The notes beneath the pieces were generated by a model that was not told the DNA's origin, did no database searches, and was given only the letters and a program-made list of their open reading frames with translations. Below are positions 2,386-50,448 of a DNA stretch of 60,294 nt, piece by piece (within the stretch, counting starts at the first letter, position 1; every line of letters starts with the position of its first letter). This stretch comes from Longimicrobiales bacterium (GTDB taxonomy: Bacteria > Gemmatimonadota > Gemmatimonadetes > Longimicrobiales > Gaopeijiaceae). Made by a program: the position numbers and the translations under genes. The stretch is taken from assembly GCA_964201975.1 (NCBI GenBank), contig CAXNGW010000001.1, positions 1 to 60,294 of the forward strand, given 5' to 3'.

Positions 2386-3063
2386 TTACTCGCCCGCCGC
2401 CCTCTTCTTCCTGGGCGGCGACTTGTCGGCTGTCTTCCTGGCGGGCGCCTTCTTGTCCGCGCCCTTCTTCTTGGCGCGGCTGGCGGGCTTCCGCTCGTCG
2501 CCGCCCGCGATCGACGCCTTGAGCGCCGCCATCAGGTCGATGATCTGGGTCTTCGGCTCCTCCGCCGGCGCCACCGTGATCTCCTACCCCTCGACCTTTC
2601 TCTGGATCAGCTCGAGCATCTTCTCGGCCGGCTTCACGTCGGCGGCGGCGATCGGCACCTCGGCGAACGAGCGCACCTCGTCGGCGTAGCGGAGCTGGTC
2701 CACGACCAGCCCCTCCTCGTGCGGCCGGGTCATGACCAGGTACTGCTTGCTGCGGGTGGCGTACTTGGCGATCGCCACCCGCCCGGACTCCTTGGTCTTG
2801 GGCGCCTCGATCGCCTTCAGCTCGTCCTCCTGGAAGAGCACGTACTGGCCCTTGGAGAACTCGTAGCCCTTGGCCATGTCGTCACGCGCGACCGTGACGT
2901 CGCACTGCGGGAAGCTGTAGTGCTGCTTCAGCCGCGTTCCGCACTCGGCGTGGACGAGGTTGAACGACACCCGGGAGCCAGGCTCGCCGGTCGAGTACAG
3001 CCTCACTGGCAAAGAGACGAGCCCGAAGGAGATCGTGGTCGAGGCGATCGCGCGTGCGGCCAT
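2386..3063 (-). pseudogene. ku: Ku (NHEJ DNA-end-binding protein) with an in-frame TAG and internal gaps
   Basis: ORF 2584..3063 (MAARAIASTTISFGLVSLPVRLYS, KGYEFSKGQYV) and ORF 2386..2574 (APAEEPKTQIIDLMAALKASI plus a Lys-rich tail) are typical Ku N- and C-termini. They share one frame and are separated by TAG 2584..2586. Relative to canonical ~270-aa Ku, about 45 aa appear missing after KTKE (near 2787) and about 25-30 aa after VKPAEKM (near 2619). Confidence 0.8.
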
Positions 3064-3148
3064 GGGCGGTCCTGGATGAAGCGTTCCCCTCCGGTGGGAC
3101 GACGGTGCCCGACCGGAAGAGGAACATATGTTCCTGGCGGTCTTCGGA

Positions 3149-3706
3149 TCACCCTCTACGAAATCTGTCTCCCGGCTTGGTGTTGCCCGAGATCTGCACG
3201 TCCCATCCGTCGGGATCCTTGACGTGGAAGCTGGCCCACGGACGCCGTCCCTCGGTGCCGGTGTCGAGCCGCGGCGCGAGGCCGCGCCGCTTCAGCTCGT
3301 CCTCGACCCGGTCGGTGTCCCAGTCGTCGATCTGGAACGACATGTGGTTCACGAGCCCCGTGATCTGCCCGGGGGCCGCCGGCGGCGCGCCCGCGGGCCG
3401 ATTGCGCGGCAGCATGTGCGTCCCCTCGGCGCCGAAGTAGAGGCGGCACTGGCCCTCGCCGTCGTCCCCTTCGACGCTCATCCCGAGCAGGTCGGCGTAC
3501 CAGTCGCGGGTGCGCGCGTAGTCGGTGACCTGGTACGAGATATGGTCGATGCCGATTGCCTTGAAGGCCGGCGCGGCGGCGGCGGCCGCGGCCTGCTTCG
3601 GCAGCGCCAGCGCGGCGGCCGCCACCGCCAGGGAGTGGATGAGCGTGCGCCGGTCGATCGCACCGTTCTCGAAGTCAGCGACCAGCCGGGCGATGGTGGC
3701 TTCCAT
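3149..3706 (-). CDS. VOC (glyoxalase/dioxygenase) family protein with Tat-type signal
   Basis: ATG 3706 with GGAGA upstream. Twin-arginine signal (DRRTLIHSLAVAAAALALP). VOC-like core (IDHISYQVTDYARTRDWYADLLGM, VNHMSFQIDDWD, FHVKDPDGWDVQI). Confidence 0.8.
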   Translation of the reverse strand: MEATIARLVADFENGAIDRRTLIHSLAVAAAALALPKQAAAAAAAPAFKAIGIDHISYQVTDYARTRDWYADLLGMSVEGDDGEGQCRLYFGAEGTHMLPRNRPAGAPPAAPGQITGLVNHMSFQIDDWDTDRVEDELKRRGLAPRLDTGTEGRRPWASFHVKDPDGWDVQISGNTKPGDRFRRG

Positions 3707-3833
3707 GGAGGTCTCCTGAAACGGGGAGTCGGCGGGCGCGGGGGAGCGGTCAGGATCATGCACCGCGGGCCGGCGGGGCGCCACTCGCGGGACCCGGCGC
3801 GGCGCGCCGGGCCACCATCTTACCTTCCCCGCC

Positions 3834-6105
3834 ATGCCCCCCCAGGACCGCCTCGAGCGGTATCGCGACAAGCGCTCCCCCGCGCCGCACCCCCGAGCCG
3901 TTCGGTGCCGCCGCACCCACCACCGGCCAGCTCTTCGTGCTGCACAAGCACCACGCCCGCAACCTGCACTAGGACCTGAGGCTGGAGTGGGAAGGGGCGC
4001 TGGAGTCGTGGGCGGTGCCCAAAGGGCCATCGCCCAATCCCGCGGACAAGCGGCTCGCCATGCACGTGGAACCGCATCCGCTCGACTACGCCGAGTTCGA
4101 GGGTGTGATTCCGAAGGGGGAGTACGGCGCCGGACCCGCGATCGTGTGGGACAAAGGAACGTGGGTGCCCGTCGAGGACGTCGCCGCCGGCTTCGCGAAG
4201 GGGAAGCTCCTGTTCGAGCTGTGGGGCTACAAAGTGAAGGGACTGTGGACGCTCGTGCACGCGCCGAAGGCGGGCGCGAACCACTGGCTCCTGATCAAGG
4301 AGAAGGATGAGCATGTGGATCGGGGCGGGACCGCCGTCTATCCTGACGACTCGATCTACTCCGGACTGGACGTGGACGACCTGCCGCGCGCGGCAGAGAT
4401 CCAGGCCGAGATGGAGGAGTGCGCGCTGGCCGCAGGGGCGCGCCGATGGGGAATCGCTCCTGATCAGCCGCAACGGGAACGACCTCACCCCAACCTTCCC
4501 CGAAGTCGCGCGCGCGATCCGCGGTCTGCCGTACGAGGGCCTCGTGCTCGACGGCGAGGTGGTCGTCCACGACGAGCATGGCCTTCCCTCCTTCGGCCAC
4601 CTGCAGCGGCGGGGCCGCTTGCAAAACGGGCGCGACATCGCGCGCGCCGCTGCCGAGCGTGGGCCCCCTGCGCTTCTCCGACCACGTCGCCGAGCAGGGC
4701 GAGGCGCTCATGACGAAGGTGGTGGAGCTGGGGCTCGAGGGAATCGTCGCCAAGCGCGCGGACTCCAAGTACGCCGGCGGGCGCTCGCGCTCCTGGTACA
4801 AGATCCCGGCGATCCGCACCGACGACTTCGTGGTGGTGGGATTCACCGACCCCGCGACGGGCCGCCCGGGCTTCGGCGCGCTGCACCTCGCCCGCTACGT
4901 GGGCGACACGCTCACCTGGATGGGGAGCGTCGGCACCGGCTTTGCCGAGGCGCAACTCAACGACCTGCGCGCGCGGCTGGAGGACGCGAGTGCGCGCACC
5001 GGGGTCGCGGGCGCGCCGCGCACCAAGGGCAACCACTGGGTGCGGCCCGAGCTGGTCGCCGAAGTGACGTTCAAGGAGATCACCGCCGACGGCATGGTCC
5101 GCCACGGCTCGTTCAGCCGGCTCCGCGACGACAAGCGGCCGCAGGAGTGCCGCGCGGAAGCGGAGGAGCTGGGAGAGGATGCGGCGGTTCCCGTGTCCGA
5201 GTCCGATCGCACAATCAAGTTCACCAACCTGAAAAAAAATATTCTGGCCGGACGCAGGCTTCACCAAGGGCGACCTGATCGAGTACTACCGCGCGATCGC
5301 GCCCTGGCTGCTCCCCTACCTGATCGACCGCCCGCTCGTACTCACCCGCTACCCCGGCGGCATCACCGAGAAGTCGTTCTATCAGAAGGATGCGCCGTCC
5401 TGGGCGCCCGACTGGATCCGCACGGTCACGGTGTGGAGCGACAGCTCCGAGCGGGAGCTCAACTATTTCGTCGCCGAGGAGGTGGACACGCTCCTCTATC
5501 TCGCCAACCTCGGCACCATCCCGCTCCACATCTGGCACAGCCGGGTCGCGTCGATCGCGACCCGCGACTGGTGCCTTCTCGATCTGGATCCCAAGGATGC
5601 GCCGTTCGCCGACGTCGTCGAGATCGCGCTCTTCCTGCACTCACTGTGCGACGAGGTCGGGCTGCCCCACTACGTGAAAACGTCCGGCTCGTCAGGGCTT
5701 CACGTGATGATCCCGCTCGGACGCCAGATGAGCTACGACCAGTCGGTCACGCTCGGCGAGTTGATCGCGCGCCTGGTGGTGAAGGCGCTGCCGAAGATCG
5801 CGACCATCGAGCGCACGGTGCAAAAGCGCGGAGGGAAGGTCTACGTGGACTACCTGCAGAACCGGCAGGGACAGCTGGTGGCGGCGCCGTTCAGCGCGCG
5901 CGAAAATCCGGGCGCGACGGTGTCGGCGTCGCTCAAGTGGAAGGAGGTCGGCCCGAAGCTGTCGCTCGCGGACTACACGATCGGGTCGGTCCCCAAAGGC
6001 ATGAAGAAGCTCAAGGGCGGGGACCCGTTCGCGCCGGTTTTGAGCGAGAGTCCTGACCTGGTGGCGGCGCTGGGGAGGCTGATGGAGCGGGCCGGGAAGG
6101 GGTAG
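3834..6105 (+). pseudogene. ligD: LigD (phosphoesterase-ligase-polymerase NHEJ enzyme), multiply disrupted
   Basis: PE domain in frame 1 (LFVLHKHHARNLH*DLRLEW, WAVPKGPS, HVEPHPLDYAEFEGVIPKGEYGAG). Ligase pieces in frame 2 (LLISRNGNDLTPTFPEV, LVLDGEVVV) and frame 0 (PLRFSDHV, GLEGIVAKRADSKY, RLRDDKRPQEC). Polymerase domain in frame 1 (FWPDAGFTKGDLIEYY, RPLVLTRYPGGI, LDLDP, VKTSGSSGLHV, YVDYLQN). Lesions: a shift at ~3876..3886, TAG 3970..3972, frame jumps with missing sequence at ~4436..4446 and ~4643..4650, and a +1 shift in the A8 run 5232..5239. Confidence 0.85.
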
Positions 6106-21972: not shown

Positions 21973-22929
21973 TCACAGCCCGAACCTCCGCATGCGGTCG
22001 CGCAGCGTGTTGCGCGACATGCCGAGGTCGAGCGCGGCGCGCGTGCGGTTGCCGCGGCGCCGATCCAGCGCGTCGCGAATGCGCTCCCTCTCGGCGTCGT
22101 CCGAGCCGTAGAAGGAGTACCGAGCGTGGTCGGCGGCGGCCGGCGGCTCGTTCGCCTCGGGTCGCCCGGCCAGGACGGTGGCGAGGGATCCCGCGAAGTC
22201 GTCCTGTAAGCCGAGGATGAGCGCGGCCTCGAGGGCGTGGCCGAGCTCGCGCACGTTGCCCGGCCACCCGTGGCCCATAAGCAAGCGAGTCGCCGCCTCG
22301 TCGAGCCGGGGACAGGCGAGCCGGTGGCGGGCCGCGGCGGCGGCGAGCAGGTGCGCGGCCAGAAGAGGAACGTCGCCCGCGCGCTCGCGGAGGGGAGGCA
22401 GGCGGAGCTCCAGCAGCGCGAGGCGGTGATACAGGTCGCGCCGAAACGCCCCCGCCGCGATCGTCCCCAGCTCGCAGGCGGTTGCGGACACGAGCCGCAC
22501 GTCCACCCGCACCGTCGCGCGCGCCCCGACCGGACGCACCTCACCCTCCTCGAGAACGGTGAGCAGCTTCGCCTGCTGGGGGAGCGGGAGGTCGCCCACC
22601 TCGTCGAGGAGCAGCGTGCCCCCGTGCGCGCTCTCAAGTAGTCCTGCGCGGTCCTCGCTCGCGCCGGTGAAGGCGCCGCGGCGGTGACCGAAGAGCTCGC
22701 TCTCGAAGAGCGCTTCGGGAACCGCGGCGCAGTTCACCGCGACGTACGGCCCCCGCGAGCGGACGCCGGCCGCGTGGATGGCGCGCGCGAGCAGGCTCTT
22801 GCCCGTCCCTGTCTCGCCCAGCAGCAACACCGGCGCGTCCACCGCTCCCGCGCGCGCCACGAAGCGGCGCACGACTGCCATGGCAGCGCTGTCACCGACG
22901 AGGATGGGGTTGGGCTTCGCGGACCGCAT
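21973..22929 (-). CDS. sigma-54-dependent transcriptional activator lacking an N-terminal sensory domain (PspF-like architecture)
   Basis: The AAA+ domain begins ~8 aa from the start. Walker A GETGTGKS, GAFTGA loop, Walker B LLLDEVGDL, C-terminal Fis-type HTH (RTRAALDLGMSRNTLRDRMRRFGL). Confidence 0.9.
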   Translation of the reverse strand: MRSAKPNPILVGDSAAMAVVRRFVARAGAVDAPVLLLGETGTGKSLLARAIHAAGVRSRGPYVAVNCAAVPEALFESELFGHRRGAFTGASEDRAGLLESAHGGTLLLDEVGDLPLPQQAKLLTVLEEGEVRPVGARATVRVDVRLVSATACELGTIAAGAFRRDLYHRLALLELRLPPLRERAGDVPLLAAHLLAAAAARHRLACPRLDEAATRLLMGHGWPGNVRELGHALEAALILGLQDDFAGSLATVLAGRPEANEPPAAADHARYSFYGSDDAERERIRDALDRRRGNRTRAALDLGMSRNTLRDRMRRFGL

Positions 22930-44932: not shown

Positions 44933-46615
<1,683 letters not shown>

Positions 46616-46748
46616 CCGGGAGAGGCCCTAACGTGCCCGGTGCGGGCGGCGTCCCGCCGCTATTGGATTGGATATCCGTCCGTTCTCCTTCAGGAAACAT
46701 CCGGCAGCACCAGCATTCGCCCCCCATGCCCATGTGCCCGCCGAGGCT

Positions 46749-47282
46749 ATGACCCCAGGCGACGCAGACAAGCCGCGCCCGAAATCTCGAGATCCCAGGA
46801 AGTCGACGGGGTCCGATACGGCCGATCTCGTCTCCGAGGTCCTCGAGGACGCCAAGCGCCGGCAAGTGGCACGCACCAAGAAGGCCGAGCCGCTGGGCCG
46901 CAATCGTTAGCGGGTCGCGGCCGTCTCGCTGCCGCTCGCTGGAGCGTTTTCGTTCTATCTCTGGTTCGGCAACCCCGCCTGGGTCACTCCGACCATGCCC
47001 GACCCCGTCACGGCCGAGCGGGCCGAGGCGGGGCTGCGGGTAGCGATGTTCTTCGAAGCGCAGAAGATCGAAAACTTCCGCCAGACGACGGGTCGGCTGC
47101 CCGACACGCTCGGGGAGCTGGGATCGGCGCCGGCCGAAATGAGCTACCAGCGCGTGGACGCGCGTACGTACCGGCTCGTCGGCCAGAGCCGCGGCGTCAC
47201 GCTCACGTTCAACTCGGATCAGGCGATCCAGCAGTTCGTGGGCGACGCCATGGACCGCCTCGGCATCGGAGACGGCCGATGA
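46749..47282 (+). pseudogene. single-pass membrane 'anchor' protein A1 (paralogue of 47722..48237) with an in-frame TAG
   Basis: ORFs 46668..46910 and 46995..47282 share a frame. TAG 46908..46910 is followed without further stops by the TM helix RVAAVSLPLAGAFSFYLWF. The periplasmic part aligns with A2 (FRQTTGRLPDTLGELG..MSYQRVDARTYRL versus FRLSSGRLPDQLRETG..ISYQKLDARTYSL). Confidence 0.7.
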
Positions 47283-47725
47283 GCGCCCGCCGACAGAACG
47301 GGTTCACGCTGATCGAGCTGATGCTCGTGGTGGTGATCGTCAGCATCCTCGCCGGCCTCGCGATCCCCAACTACCAGAACGTCGTCGTCAAGGCGCGAGC
47401 TGCCGACCTACTGGGACGCATCGACGTGGTCAGGGTCGGAGTGCATCAGTTCCTCGGGGAGAACAACGCCTGGCCGGGTGAAACCGCGACCGGGGTGGTC
47501 CCCGCCGGCCTGACGGGCTTCCTGCCCGACAACTTCTCGTTCACGGGTGAGGGATTCAATCTGGATTGGGAGAACGGCGGTGGTCTGATCGGGATCGCGA
47601 TCATCACGGACAACGAGACCCTCGGCAACGCTCTGGTCGATCTGGCGGGCCCCAGACGGTGGTTCGGTGTCCGGGAACCGCTACGTGTTCATCCTGGACC
47701 GGAACTGACCGCCCGGCACGCATGA
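47279..47725 (+). CDS. type IV pilin-like / pseudopilin protein P1; C-terminal frameshift suspected (~47669..47675)
   Basis: ATGA overlap. Prepilin leader and methylation motif MSARRQNG|FTLIELMLVVVIVSILAGLAIPNY. In the +1 frame the end reads GNRYVFILDRN* (stop 47706..47708), which matches the P2 end GHNSTFLIDGL*. Confidence 0.75.
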   Translation: MSARRQNGFTLIELMLVVVIVSILAGLAIPNYQNVVVKARAADLLGRIDVVRVGVHQFLGENNAWPGETATGVVPAGLTGFLPDNFSFTGEGFNLDWENGGGLIGIAIITDNETLGNALVDLAGPRRWFGVREPLRVHPGPELTARHA

Positions 47726-48237
47726 CCGAGAGCGAGCCGAAGCCGCTCGACCGCAAGAGCCTCTCCGACGACAAGGAGGGGACGCGGGTGATCGATGAAG
47801 TGCTGCGCGACCAGGCGCGGCGGGAAGTGCTGCGGGACATCGCCTACCGGCGGCCCAGCGCATCCCTTCGGACCCGCGTCGTCGCGGGGGTGCTGGGGCT
47901 GGTCGCGCTCGTCACGTGGACCCTCCCGGTCCCCGGCCTCCGGCCCGACATCCCCTTCCCCCTCCCGCCCGCCGACGAGGAGGCCGCCCTCCGGATCGCC
48001 GCCTATATCCAGGCGCAGCAGGTGGAGGCGTTCCGCCTCTCCTCCGGCCGCCTTCCCGACCAGCTGCGCGAGACCGGGGAACCCATGCCCGGGATCAGCT
48101 ATCAGAAGCTGGATGCGCGCACCTACAGCCTGAACGGCACCACCGAGCGCACCACCATCCGGTGGATTTCGTCCGACTCGTCAGCCGCGCTCCTCGGCAA
48201 GAACGGAGCGCAGCGGCTGCGCGGAATGATCCCATGA
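47722..48237 (+). CDS. single-pass membrane 'anchor' protein A2
   Basis: Charged N-terminus, TM helix (VVAGVLGLVALVTWTL), ~100-aa extracytoplasmic domain. Paralogue of A1. Confidence 0.7.
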   Translation: MTESEPKPLDRKSLSDDKEGTRVIDEVLRDQARREVLRDIAYRRPSASLRTRVVAGVLGLVALVTWTLPVPGLRPDIPFPLPPADEEAALRIAAYIQAQQVEAFRLSSGRLPDQLRETGEPMPGISYQKLDARTYSLNGTTERTTIRWISSDSSAALLGKNGAQRLRGMIP

Positions 48238-48689
48238 GCGCCCATCGCCGCGGCGGCTTCACGCTGGTCGAGGTGGTCGCCGTGGTCAGCATCCTCGCGC
48301 GCATCGCGCTCCCCAACGTCCAGGAGGCGCTCATCCGCGCGCGCGCCGCCGCGGCGATGGGGGACGTCGAGGTGGTGCGCACCGCCGCGGCCAACTACTA
48401 CGCGCGCAACAACGCTTGGCCGGGGGAGGCACCGCCCGGCGTGGTTCCCGCTGAGCTGCTCGATGACCTGCCCGACGAGTTCTCGTTCGATCGCGGCGAG
48501 TATCGGCTCGACTGGGAACGCTGGACACTGCCCAACGGACTGCCAGAGGACACGACGCCTCGCATTCTCGTGGGGGTGTTGATCGCGACTCCGGACGAGA
48601 TGCTGGGGAACGCGGTGGCCGCGCTCATCGACAATAGCGGCTGGTACAGCCTGGGGCACAACAGCACGTTCCTGATCGACGGGCTGTAG
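48234..48689 (+). CDS. type IV pilin-like / pseudopilin protein P2
   Basis: ATGA overlap. Leader MSAHRRGG|FTLVEVVAVVSILA. Shares NNAWPGE, VVPAEL..LPDEFSF, LDWE with P1. Confidence 0.8.
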   Translation: MSAHRRGGFTLVEVVAVVSILARIALPNVQEALIRARAAAAMGDVEVVRTAAANYYARNNAWPGEAPPGVVPAELLDDLPDEFSFDRGEYRLDWERWTLPNGLPEDTTPRILVGVLIATPDEMLGNAVAALIDNSGWYSLGHNSTFLIDGL

Positions 48690-48704
48690 CGCGCCTCCGA
48701 GCCG

Positions 48705-49577
48705 TCAGAACCCGAACACCCGCGCGGCGTTGTCGTGGAATACCGCGCCCCACTGCTCCGCGGGCACCGCTTCCATGTAAGCACGCACGTAAGCGGCCAC
48801 GTCCACCAAGGGCCAATCGCTGCCGAACATCAGCTTGGTGGGGTCTTCCACGTAGCCCAGCACCCAGCGGATGGCGTCCACGACATAGCGCTCGCGCGCC
48901 GCCGCGGGAACGCCGTCCATGTCTCCGGTCATGAGCGCGGAGCACTCGAGGTACACGTTCGGATTCTTGTAGGCGACCTCGGCGGCGGACTGGAGCCAGG
49001 GATTTCCGCAGTGGGCGATCACGAACGTCACGTCGGGATGATCTACCGCCACTTCGTCCACCGTGAGCGGGTCCGCGTACTTGAGCTTCGCTCGCGCGGA
49101 CTCGGTGTCCCCGGTGTGGAAAACCACCGGAACGCGGTGGCGCGCGGCGAGTCGGTAGACGGGCTCGTAGACGGGGTCCGACGCCCACCGCGGTACGTAG
49201 CCCAGGTAGATCTTCACGCACTGCACCCGCTGGTCCGCGAGCGCCCGGCCCAGAGCGATCGTGTCCGGCTCGGCGCCCACGCCCGCGCAGAAGCGCACCG
49301 GACCAGGGAGGTCCGGAGGATCCACCGACCCCTGCGGGAGGTGGACCACCGCCCCCACGATCCCCGCGTCCCCCCACGCGGCAAGAAGACCCTCCCGGGT
49401 GTTGGAGATCGCCGCGTCGCTCGCGGCCGGATCGAACGCGGCGTGCTCGTGGACGTCGATGATGCGGGCTGGCCAGCGCCCGGGCGCCTCCTGGGCGCGG
49501 AGGGGGACCCCCGCGGCCACAAGGACGGCGCAGAAGACGATGCCGACCGCGATCGGCGGAGGGGGCGTGCGTAGCAT
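48705..49577 (-). CDS. secreted amidohydrolase-2 (TIM-barrel metal-dependent hydrolase) family protein
   Basis: ATG 49577. Signal/TM (IAVGIVFCAVLVAAGVPLRAQ). Motifs IIDVHEH, VVFHTGD, VIAHCGNPW, MFGSDWP. Confidence 0.8.
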   Translation of the reverse strand: MLRTPPPPIAVGIVFCAVLVAAGVPLRAQEAPGRWPARIIDVHEHAAFDPAASDAAISNTREGLLAAWGDAGIVGAVVHLPQGSVDPPDLPGPVRFCAGVGAEPDTIALGRALADQRVQCVKIYLGYVPRWASDPVYEPVYRLAARHRVPVVFHTGDTESARAKLKYADPLTVDEVAVDHPDVTFVIAHCGNPWLQSAAEVAYKNPNVYLECSALMTGDMDGVPAAARERYVVDAIRWVLGYVEDPTKLMFGSDWPLVDVAAYVRAYMEAVPAEQWGAVFHDNAARVFGF

Positions 49578-49836: not shown

Positions 49837-50448
49837 GTGCGCGTGGATGTCCCGCCCGAGATCGCCTTTCGTAATTTGGACCCCACCGATGCGCTCAAGC
49901 GGCTGGTCCAGGAAGGAATCGACTCCCTCGCCAAGGTCCACCCTCGCGTCGTGAGCTGTCGCGTGATGGTGGAGGAGGCGAGCCGAGGACTTCCTCATGT
50001 CCGGCTGGACATCGGCATTCCCGGCGGTGAGCTCGTCGTCGATCACGAAGCGCCGCTCGACCCCCAGCATAGGGATAGGGATGTAGCCCAGGCGATCCGG
50101 GAGGCGTTCAACGTGGCGCGCCGCCAACTTCGCGAGCGGCACAAGCGCCGCTCGGACGGCAAGCGCCGCGGTGGCGCTCCCCAAGGACGGATTCTTCGGC
50201 TCATCATGGAGAGCCCGGCCGACCGATACGGCTTCCTTCTCTCTGACGACGGGCGGGAGATCTACTTCCACGAGAGCGTCGTGCGCGGAATCGCCTACGA
50301 CGAGATGGTCGAGGGCCTCGAGGTTTCCTTCACCGAAGCGAGCGCCAAGGAAGGATCCCAGGCGACTTCAGTTTCCCCGCTCGTGGGGGGCGACGACATG
50401 GACAGCGAGGAGCGTCATTCCTTGATCCTGGGATCCGACGCGCTCTGA
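49837..50448 (+). CDS. HPF/RaiA-like ribosome-associated domain fused to a cold-shock-like (CSD/OB) domain
   Basis: N-terminal HPF-like pattern (ALKRLVQEGIDSLAKVHPRVVSCRVMVEE...VAQAIREAFNVARRQLRE). C-terminal CSD-like pattern (YGFLLSDDGREIYFHESVV....EGLEVSF...AKEGSQATSV). Start GTG 49837 or 49843. Confidence 0.65.
   Translation: MRVDVPPEIAFRNLDPTDALKRLVQEGIDSLAKVHPRVVSCRVMVEEASRGLPHVRLDIGIPGGELVVDHEAPLDPQHRDRDVAQAIREAFNVARRQLRERHKRRSDGKRRGGAPQGRILRLIMESPADRYGFLLSDDGREIYFHESVVRGIAYDEMVEGLEVSFTEASAKEGSQATSVSPLVGGDDMDSEERHSLILGSDAL

Follow-up and report, generated by a model that had tools for sequence, protein, structure and literature searches.

The locus analysed here raises the question of what a pilin-like gene does when it lies apart from pilus genes and is coupled to a membrane partner of its own. 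It occupies positions 46749-48689 of a 60,294-nucleotide stretch of DNA from a Longimicrobiales bacterium (Gemmatimonadota; contig CAXNGW010000001.1), which as a whole we call the window, and consists of four open reading frames (ORFs) on the + strand in the order A1-P1-A2-P2, where A stands for a single-pass membrane anchor protein and P for a prepilin-like protein. An earlier note, made from the sequence alone, had described the locus as a tandem two-gene module, an orphan pilin cassette with a dedicated membrane partner, duplicated and then partly decaying. The layout and the nature of the genes withstood the present analysis, and the proposed history did not. The answer that we favour, and that we consider probable by a modest degree, is that this is a phylum-specific module of a pilin and its cognate bitopic partner, anciently doubled in Longimicrobiales, whose machinery lies elsewhere and which is being inactivated in this strain.

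The two halves of the locus are paralogous, since A1 and A2 share 36% identity (E 3e-24), and P1 and P2 share 44% (E 3e-34). A1 (46749..47282) is an anchor gene of what we call below type III, now a pseudogene, and P1 is a type III prepilin-like gene, frameshifted near its 3′ end, which runs from 47279 to 47708 if read to its intact-frame stop (47706-47708), or to 47725 as it stands (stop 47723-47725). A2 (47722..48237) is an intact type II anchor gene encoding 171 aa, and P2 (48234..48689) is a type II prepilin-like gene whose ORF is open and whose product has a 3-residue deletion in alpha1-N. Third-position GC is 81-88% in these four frames, which favours them over the overlapping ORFs of either strand. 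Each P gene starts on its A gene through an ATGA overlap, and the same 4-nt A-to-P overlap was found in four related loci (L001, L002, L028 and L031); this is the only junction type at which an overlap is conserved. An ATGA had been claimed at every junction. The claim holds for A-to-P and fails for P1/A2, where the overlap is created by the P1 frameshift: read without it, P1 ends 13 nt 5′ of the A2 ATG, and the corresponding gaps of relatives measure 42-53 nt. A promoter and terminator scan of positions 46400-49000 gave nothing beyond the shuffled expectation, and Rfam and tRNA scans of the whole window gave no matches.

The leaders of both P proteins have the prepilin form G/FTL(I/V)E (P1, MSARRQNG/FTLIE; P2, MSAHRRGG/FTLVE; the slash marks the predicted cleavage site). 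P1 scored above the cut-offs of Pfam N_methyl (PF07963; 35.9 bits, cut-off 21.2) and of TIGR02532 (32.9 bits, cut-off 16.3). P2 passed TIGR02532 with 18.6 bits; the 3-residue deletion brought its N_methyl score down to 19.5 bits, under the Pfam cut-off, and PF07963 is assigned in P2 orthologues. When a family profile built from 21 diverse P proteins was searched against the PDB, it matched gonococcal and meningococcal PilE with E 3-5e-12 (best 3.4e-12) over residues 9-80, a match that runs past the methylation motif into alpha1-C and the 'YY.n.G.WP' alpha-beta loop. In the same search type IVa pilins (E 3e-12) ranked well above GspG (E 8.5e-6). The AlphaFold2 (AF2) model of P2 (pLDDT 82, pTM 0.69) shows a 49-residue helix (residues 11-59) and a four-stranded sheet, that is, a long N-terminal helix packed on an antiparallel beta-sheet head. 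The top seven structures retrieved with this model by Foldseek from the PDB were all pilins, with modest E values (0.018-0.26), and comprised C. difficile PilA1 (probability 1.0, TM-score 0.49-0.55) and gonococcal pilin.

The residues that define the pilin register are conserved beyond this strain. Gly-1 is present in about 60 of the 72 parsed P homologues, and Gly-1 together with Phe+1 in 53 of about 72. In type IVa pilins, Glu5 and Pro22 are 17 residues apart; a proline at +22, 17 residues past Glu5, was found in P1 and in 58 of 76 homologues by automated parse, in which some of the automatic parses took an upstream acid, and most of the remainder, read by eye, also have a spacing of 17. In the P2 of the window the helix proline stands at +19. 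The matches to N_methyl and TIGR02532, the PilE profile match and the pilin structures at the top of the Foldseek list thus argue that P is a type IVa-pilin-like, prepilin-type protein with a predicted pilin fold, which agrees with what the earlier note had concluded from the leaders. We also observed that the type II P proteins (48234-48689 in the window; P0208-P0253 among the homologues) have a conserved Arg at mature position +18 in alpha1-N ('SILARIALP'), which is Gly or Ala in type III. A charged residue in pilin alpha1-N is unusual.

The A proteins, in contrast to P, could not be placed in any described family. A1 translates into a charged cytoplasmic N-terminus and one transmembrane helix, with some 90 aa forming an alpha/beta domain in the periplasm; its part 3′ of a premature stop codon still matches the hidden Markov model (HMM) of the A family (7e-47), and it is 85% and 70% identical at the amino acid level to the intact orthologues of the related contigs L002 and L001, respectively. 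Neither A1, A2 nor the long A homologues had a Pfam, NCBIfam or PDB-sequence match (for A1 and A2, none at E <= 1 in Pfam and NCBIfam). An exhaustive profile search defined a family of 825 clusters at 50% identity, 301 of them with E <= 1e-10, whose members are almost all of about 170 aa; A2 has 59 close homologue clusters. In the AF2 model of A2, a cytoplasmic helix (12-41) precedes the transmembrane helix (49-67) and a Pro-rich linker, and the ectodomain consists of an alpha(83-108)-beta3 core with pLDDT above 90 and a less confident C-terminal helix. The predicted topology is therefore N-in, with an amphipathic cytoplasmic helix and a small periplasmic alpha-beta3-alpha domain. When the full-length A2 model was compared with the PDB by Foldseek, no match reached E <= 1e-3, and phmmer found no match to A with E. 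coli GspL, GspM, GspC or GspB. Neither the four profile libraries nor the PDB searches nor the literature searches for this module yielded a description of the A partner. These results are in line with the earlier view of A as a dedicated single-pass partner outside the known families of the pilus and of the type II secretion system (T2SS), and they suggest that A is a previously unannotated family of bitopic inner-membrane proteins.

A derivation of A from a pilin was also considered. A comparison of the A and P families by hhalign was not significant (probability ~1%, E 0.057), with an alignment that is topologically sensible, the Foldseek matches of A2 were likewise not significant, and the PDB profile search with A found no pilin. 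A pilin-like head on a non-cleavable anchor is for these reasons kept as a lead only.

The type I A proteins of Gemmatimonadales (L019-L026, L027 and L028) are longer, at 290-400 aa. They have a very basic tip (ARKRKKxKK, for example) ahead of the helix-transmembrane-ectodomain unit; between the two runs an extended acidic region, rich in Ala and Pro and disordered in appearance. None of these proteins had a Pfam match.

A survey of whether anchor and pilin genes occur together in other genomes had been proposed, and we found the pairing to be conserved. With the A and P HMMs, a P gene was detected immediately 3′ of the A gene in every related locus examined that has downstream sequence, except in the eroded L007/L008 described below. 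All 18 of the 18 loci from one-genome-per-species GTDB contigs belong to Gemmatimonadota (Longimicrobiales, Gemmatimonadales and Gemmatimonas), and among the A family members seen, every source name that gives a taxon is also of this phylum. The neighbour-joining trees of A and P are congruent and resolve the same three module types. Type I takes in the modules that occur singly in Gemmatimonadales, plus the first module in each of three other genomes, and has the P leader G/ATPGD; type II is the A2/P2 kind, with the leader G/FT(L/M)VE and the Arg at +18; type III is the A1/P1 kind and is confined to Longimicrobiales. Because the two trees are congruent, the modules appear to duplicate and diverge as units, which is the pattern expected of cognate interacting pairs. 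Thus each of the findings that could have overturned the earlier proposal came out in its favour: A matched no known family, the A-P pairing is conserved, and P is predicted to have a pilin fold.

The doubling itself is old. At the DNA level, the two modules of the window resemble each other only in blocks of 56-81 nt with 73-74% identity, about 950 nt apart. Types II and III form separate clades common to several Longimicrobiales genomes, and both are intact in relatives. These data indicate that types III and II came to lie in tandem long ago in Longimicrobiales, where both copies are normally maintained.

On this basis we propose the following course of events. A and P are coupled in translation at the conserved ATGA overlap and co-diverge as cognate pairs. 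Each P would insert in the inner membrane and be cut after Gly-1 by a prepilin peptidase encoded elsewhere in the genome, and its own A would then bind it, in the membrane or in the periplasm. A may act as a docking partner or chaperone that presents P to a type IV pilus machine as a low-abundance pilin; alternatively, A may hold P as a short membrane-tethered stub. From the translational coupling, the co-divergence and the preserved pilin register we infer the cleavage of P, its binding to A and its entry into a filament, which it might also prime; a connection to a pilus machine would likewise be part of this scheme.

To what extent this proposal fits the genomic setting depends on the machinery and on the neighbouring genes. 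With E. coli GspA-M and GspO as phmmer queries, we searched every ORF, in six frames, of the window and 33 related loci (together 527 kb). GspG and GspH were the only queries that matched, and they matched only the P genes; no secretin, GspE/PilB ATPase, GspF/PilC platform protein or GspO/PilD peptidase was found in the window or in the 33 loci. For the window, a Pfam search of 10 ORFs that were selected or unclear, the inspection of all the others and synteny with Pfam-annotated relatives gave the same result, so that the absence of assembly machinery from the window, reported earlier, was borne out. Since there is no machinery near the module, its link to pili is indirect. Surveys have recorded type IV pilus genes among the Gemmatimonadota of every environment but the marine one (PMC10581226), and in G. 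groenlandica as well (PMC7844134). It is plausible that the machinery is encoded elsewhere in this genome.

The gene immediately upstream of the module is ettA (ABC-F translation factor; 44933..46615, +). A same-strand ettA lies directly 5′ of the A-P genes in 16 of 19 loci, and also in L028-L032, in Longimicrobiales as well as Gemmatimonadales, and is preceded by a MoxR-DUF58-BatA/VWA-DUF4175 block, in a synteny that crosses orders. In one locus (L031) a CBM9/DUF5916 gene is inserted between ettA and A, which argues against an obligatory ettA-A operon; we therefore take ettA as a conserved positional neighbour, with no functional link implied. The neighbours of the module comprise ettA, Bat/VWA, DUF4175, ROK, HPF, MFS and ExbBD-TonB genes, with no pilMNOPQ or gsp operon among them, and the only ones that recur are ettA and the Bat/VWA-DUF4175 block. 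The downstream genes are of unrelated housekeeping kinds (BNR/sortilin-like, an APH-M23-aminotransferase fusion, FeoAB, a MacB-type permease and a hydrolase). As a separate observation, the synteny of ettA and the Bat block is unusually deep for genes that are apparently unrelated.

Several of these results weigh against the reading that we favour. Apart from the missing machinery, the type I leader, which is found phylum-wide, is degenerate (it has no Phe+1, and Asp replaces Glu) and may not be a substrate of prepilin peptidase. P1 and P2 have no cysteines, hence they do not have the disulfide-bonded D-region of type IVa pilins. The kinship between the A and P families is not significant by hhalign, as said above, and the fold match of A is weak: the best one, Thermus TTHA1222 (5g2f), has E 0.23, and the alpha-beta3-alpha folds of dsRBD and SRP9/14 score alike.

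Some of these observations would suit the main alternative, in which the pilin fold works independently of any machine. A and P would form a stable inner-membrane heterodimer outside filaments. This could serve as a scaffold in the envelope or periplasm, or it could signal through the cytoplasmic domain of A, and the pilin N-terminus would be a signal-anchor and nothing else. The oldest and most widespread module, the single-copy type I of Gemmatimonadales, is the one that has no Phe+1 and has Asp at +5; the module never lies beside pil or gsp genes and keeps a fixed housekeeping neighbourhood (Bat/VWA, DUF4175, ettA) across orders; the long, basic-then-acidic, disordered-looking cytoplasmic extensions of the Gemmatimonadales A proteins suggest cytoplasmic partners; and the lack of a disulfide D-region in P would be in keeping with it. 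However, even the type I P proteins keep Gly-1, the acid at +5 and Pro at +22, with the exact spacing from +5 to Pro22, and types II and III keep the textbook G/FTLxE leader. These positions matter for recognition by prepilin peptidase and for helix packing in the filament, and a membrane anchor alone would not need them. For this reason we find the machine-independent alternative doubtful. A particular form of it, in which the pilin fold has been taken out of filaments in a phylum-specific A-P pair, with cleaved or uncleaved P held permanently at the inner membrane and the cytoplasmic tail of A coupling the periplasmic complex to a cytoplasmic process, no pilus machine being involved, is in our judgement unlikely. 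The fixed position beside ettA might or might not reflect such a coupling of A-P to a cytoplasmic process.

We also weighed the possibility that A is a very divergent equivalent of PilN, PilO, GspM or GspL and P a GspG-like pseudopilin, so that the module would be what is left of a reduced T2SS or type IV pilus operon. A does resemble PilN, PilO and GspM in size and topology (about 170 aa, N-in, one transmembrane helix, a periplasmic alpha/beta domain), E. coli GspG matches P by phmmer, and the GspG model TIGR01710 gave 34.2 bits (E 2e-8) with P1 and 21.6 bits with P2. Nevertheless, these scores are far under the cut-off of 88.85 bits and cover only the N-terminal helix, and the PDB profile ranking given above places P with type IVa pilins rather than GspG. 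On the side of A, besides the negative Gsp and Pfam searches, no PilN, PilO, GspM or GspL structure was among the best 50 Foldseek matches of A2, and the predicted alpha-beta3-alpha fold differs from the duplicated alpha-beta-beta ferredoxin-like fold of those proteins. As far as sequence and model comparisons reach, A is not recognisable as any of them, and a remnant operon is improbable.

The favoured reading of a paired pilin module holds further that the module is being inactivated in this strain, and this part of it rests on three lesions. The first is an in-frame TAG nonsense codon in A1 (46908..46910, +). The orthologues of L001 and L002 have Gln at this position, and the lesion is consistent with a CAG to TAG change. 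The next ATG (46995) lies past the transmembrane helix, therefore a restart product would have no anchor. A reassignment of the stop codon was considered and rejected, as the stop of P2 is itself TAG. The second lesion is a +1 G insertion in P1 (47666..47667, +), which has GG where relatives have a single G (TTCGGTG here versus TTCGTG in L006). The extra G exchanges the conserved C-terminal strand VSGNRYVFILDRN for GVREPLRVHPGPELTARHA. When it was deleted in silico, P1 ended in VSGNRYVFILDRN followed by the stop at 47706-47708, matching the orthologues, which in the two large related contigs L001 and L002 end in '...RWFVSGNRYVFIL...'. In L006, which is 99.5% identical to the window, the single G leaves the P1 frame open.

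The third lesion had escaped the earlier note, which took the second module as intact. This is so for A2, the only gene of the four without a lesion, and for the P2 reading frame, which is open; however, P2 has lost three residues after Glu+5. A 9-bp in-frame deletion (approximately 48270..48275, +) lies directly 3′ of the Glu+5 codon (48270-48272), and the resulting gap is found in the P2 of the window alone, as 24 of 24 other aligned orthologues have the residues. The spacing between the acid at +5 and the proline is consequently 14, in this lineage only, versus the 17 of most homologues. Near this site we observed a perfect 17-nt inverted repeat (48241-48257 and 48345-48361; CCCATCGCCGCGGCGGC and GCCGCCGCGGCGATGGG) that flanks the part of P2 coding for the leader and alpha1-N. 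It could be due to chance in DNA of 70% GC, or form an mRNA hairpin.

The damage to the first module, in A1 and P1, had been reported from the window alone, and it recurs elsewhere. The TAG is shared with L003 and L004, which are independent assemblies from other samples, and the extra G is common to L003, L004 and L005, the last of which spans the frameshift only and comes from a separate Logan assembly of raw reads. Because both recur in independent assemblies, the TAG and the frameshift are not sequencing errors.

The ratio of nonsynonymous to synonymous substitution rates (dN/dS) was low for all four genes: 0.09 and 0.18 for A1, 0.15 and 0.23 for P1, and 0.25 and 0.28 for A2, against L002 and L001, respectively, and 0.24 for P2, against L001 only. 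Values of 0.09-0.28 indicate that all four genes evolved under purifying selection, with module 1 (A1/P1) the most constrained, and that the damage is very young. We conclude that the damage is recent and confined to the strain level, and that it comprises three lesions (the TAG, the +1 G and the P2 deletion) rather than two.

This bears directly on the history proposed earlier, in which an orphan cassette was recently duplicated in tandem and one redundant copy decays as surplus. Although the homologous modules are adjacent and both the TAG and the frameshift fall in the first of them, the paralogues are only 36-44% identical, the module types are separate clades that are present and intact in several genomes, the strongest purifying selection is on module 1 (dN/dS 0.09-0.15), a 99.5%-identical strain keeps the P1 frame intact, and P2 of the supposedly intact module is altered as well. 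We consider this scenario very improbable, and with it the statement that the module was duplicated and then partly decayed has to be replaced by an ancient duplication and a recent, strain-level damage. It is hardly credible that assembly or sequencing produced the TAG and the frameshift and that all four genes are functional in the real genome, for even though related long contigs contain breaks that are likely of assembly type (ettA in L001, P2 in L002), the same TAG is present in two other-sample assemblies and the same extra G in three, and GG is not a long homopolymer.

Two further sets of disrupted genes were observed at related loci. In another genome (L007, 9600-10950, and L008, 9286-9978), a solitary A2-type gene lies beside insertion sequence elements (rve, Transposase_mut), the P1-like gene upstream is reduced to its last 48 codons, and P2 is absent downstream; this is a second, independent erosion of the locus. 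In the very long 'ctg' contigs, ettA is in two ORFs in L001 (7664-8727) and P2 is in two ORFs in L002 (10513-10992), through an assembly indel or a real lesion.

Other features of the window were noted in passing. The hibernation-promoting factor (HPF, Ribosomal_S30AE; window 49837-50448, L003 5122-5727) seems to be joined to a weak cold-shock domain; its gene is the second one 3′ of the module, so that the ribosome-associated ettA and HPF flank the locus. A sigma-54 activator (21973-22929, -; Pfam E 9e-61) has an AAA+ domain and a Fis-type helix-turn-helix, and no receiver or sensor domain; activators of this kind control pilin genes in other phyla. Toward the start of the window, a repair cluster of the non-homologous end-joining type (2584-6105) contains a Ku-like ORF (2584-3291, -) and ORFs with a LigD-type ATP-dependent ligase domain and a polymerase/primase domain (4307-6105, +). 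At 135-1319 an ORF with a cyclic-nucleotide-binding domain has a GGDEF diguanylate cyclase ORF directly after it, both recognised by eye in the translations.

The components of type IV filament systems are generally listed as a fixed set. The module adds to it a pilin-like protein that is always accompanied by its own co-evolving partner, of an unannotated family, and the pair has been kept throughout a phylum that is poorly studied, apart from any machinery. Should A prove to be a dedicated docking or chaperone protein for a pilin, type IV filaments would gain a new class of accessory protein; should the pair instead function without a machine, the pilin fold would have been reused outside filaments. 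A new Pfam or NCBIfam model could be built on the A family, which is well defined, and would improve the annotation of Gemmatimonadota genomes. In addition, the strain-level lesions show that at least one natural population can do without the module or is under selection against it, which offers a start for an ecological comparison.

Finally, we compared the module with the systems that it most resembles. Among small type IV-like pilins, Thermus thermophilus TTHA1222 (PDB 5g2f) is the best, not significant, Foldseek match of A2 (78 columns, target-normalised TM-score 0.44, probability 0.77, E 0.23). Both have a long helix on a small antiparallel sheet, followed in A by a 'G-R-L-P'-type loop resembling the pseudopilin 'G-x-Y-P'; in contrast, A has no class III signal peptide, and a Pro-rich linker of 15 residues separates its helix from the transmembrane segment. 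The Verru_Chthon cassette proteins (TIGR02596/TIGR02599) belong to phylum-restricted, multi-gene cassettes with prepilin-type N-termini that lie apart from pilus operons. P1 matches TIGR02596 weakly (E 9.5e-5; 22.6 bits, cut-off 70) and over a 28-residue N-terminus only, and A is unmatched in Pfam and NCBIfam.

PilN, PilO, GspM and GspL share with A the size, the cytoplasmic N-terminus, the single transmembrane helix, the small periplasmic alpha/beta domain and an operon related to pilins. They gave no match to A in sequence or in fold, and A occurs one-to-one with a pilin gene and is duplicated with it, instead of once per machine. The T2SS pseudopilins GspG and GspH are similar to P in the N-terminal helix and in their small size, whereas P stays under the equivalog cut-off, has no gsp operon and is better matched by type IVa pilins.

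The closest likeness is to the type IVa major pilins (Neisseria PilE, Pseudomonas PilA), with which P shares a short leader that is basic and ends in Gly, the F-T-L-x-E that follows, a hydrophobic alpha1-N containing a proline (at +22 in P1 and most homologues, at +19 in the P2 of the window), the passage of alpha1-C into a 'Y..n.G.WP' alpha-beta loop and a four-stranded head. Unlike them, P has neither cysteines nor the D-region disulfide, its head cannot be aligned in sequence past residue 80, type II has the Arg at +18 in alpha1-N and type I the leader G/ATPGD, and P is never near pil genes and always preceded by its cognate A gene. Overall the module falls short of a categorically new system. 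P adds a member to a known class of proteins, and the part for which the searches made here gave no description is its obligate, co-evolving A partner.

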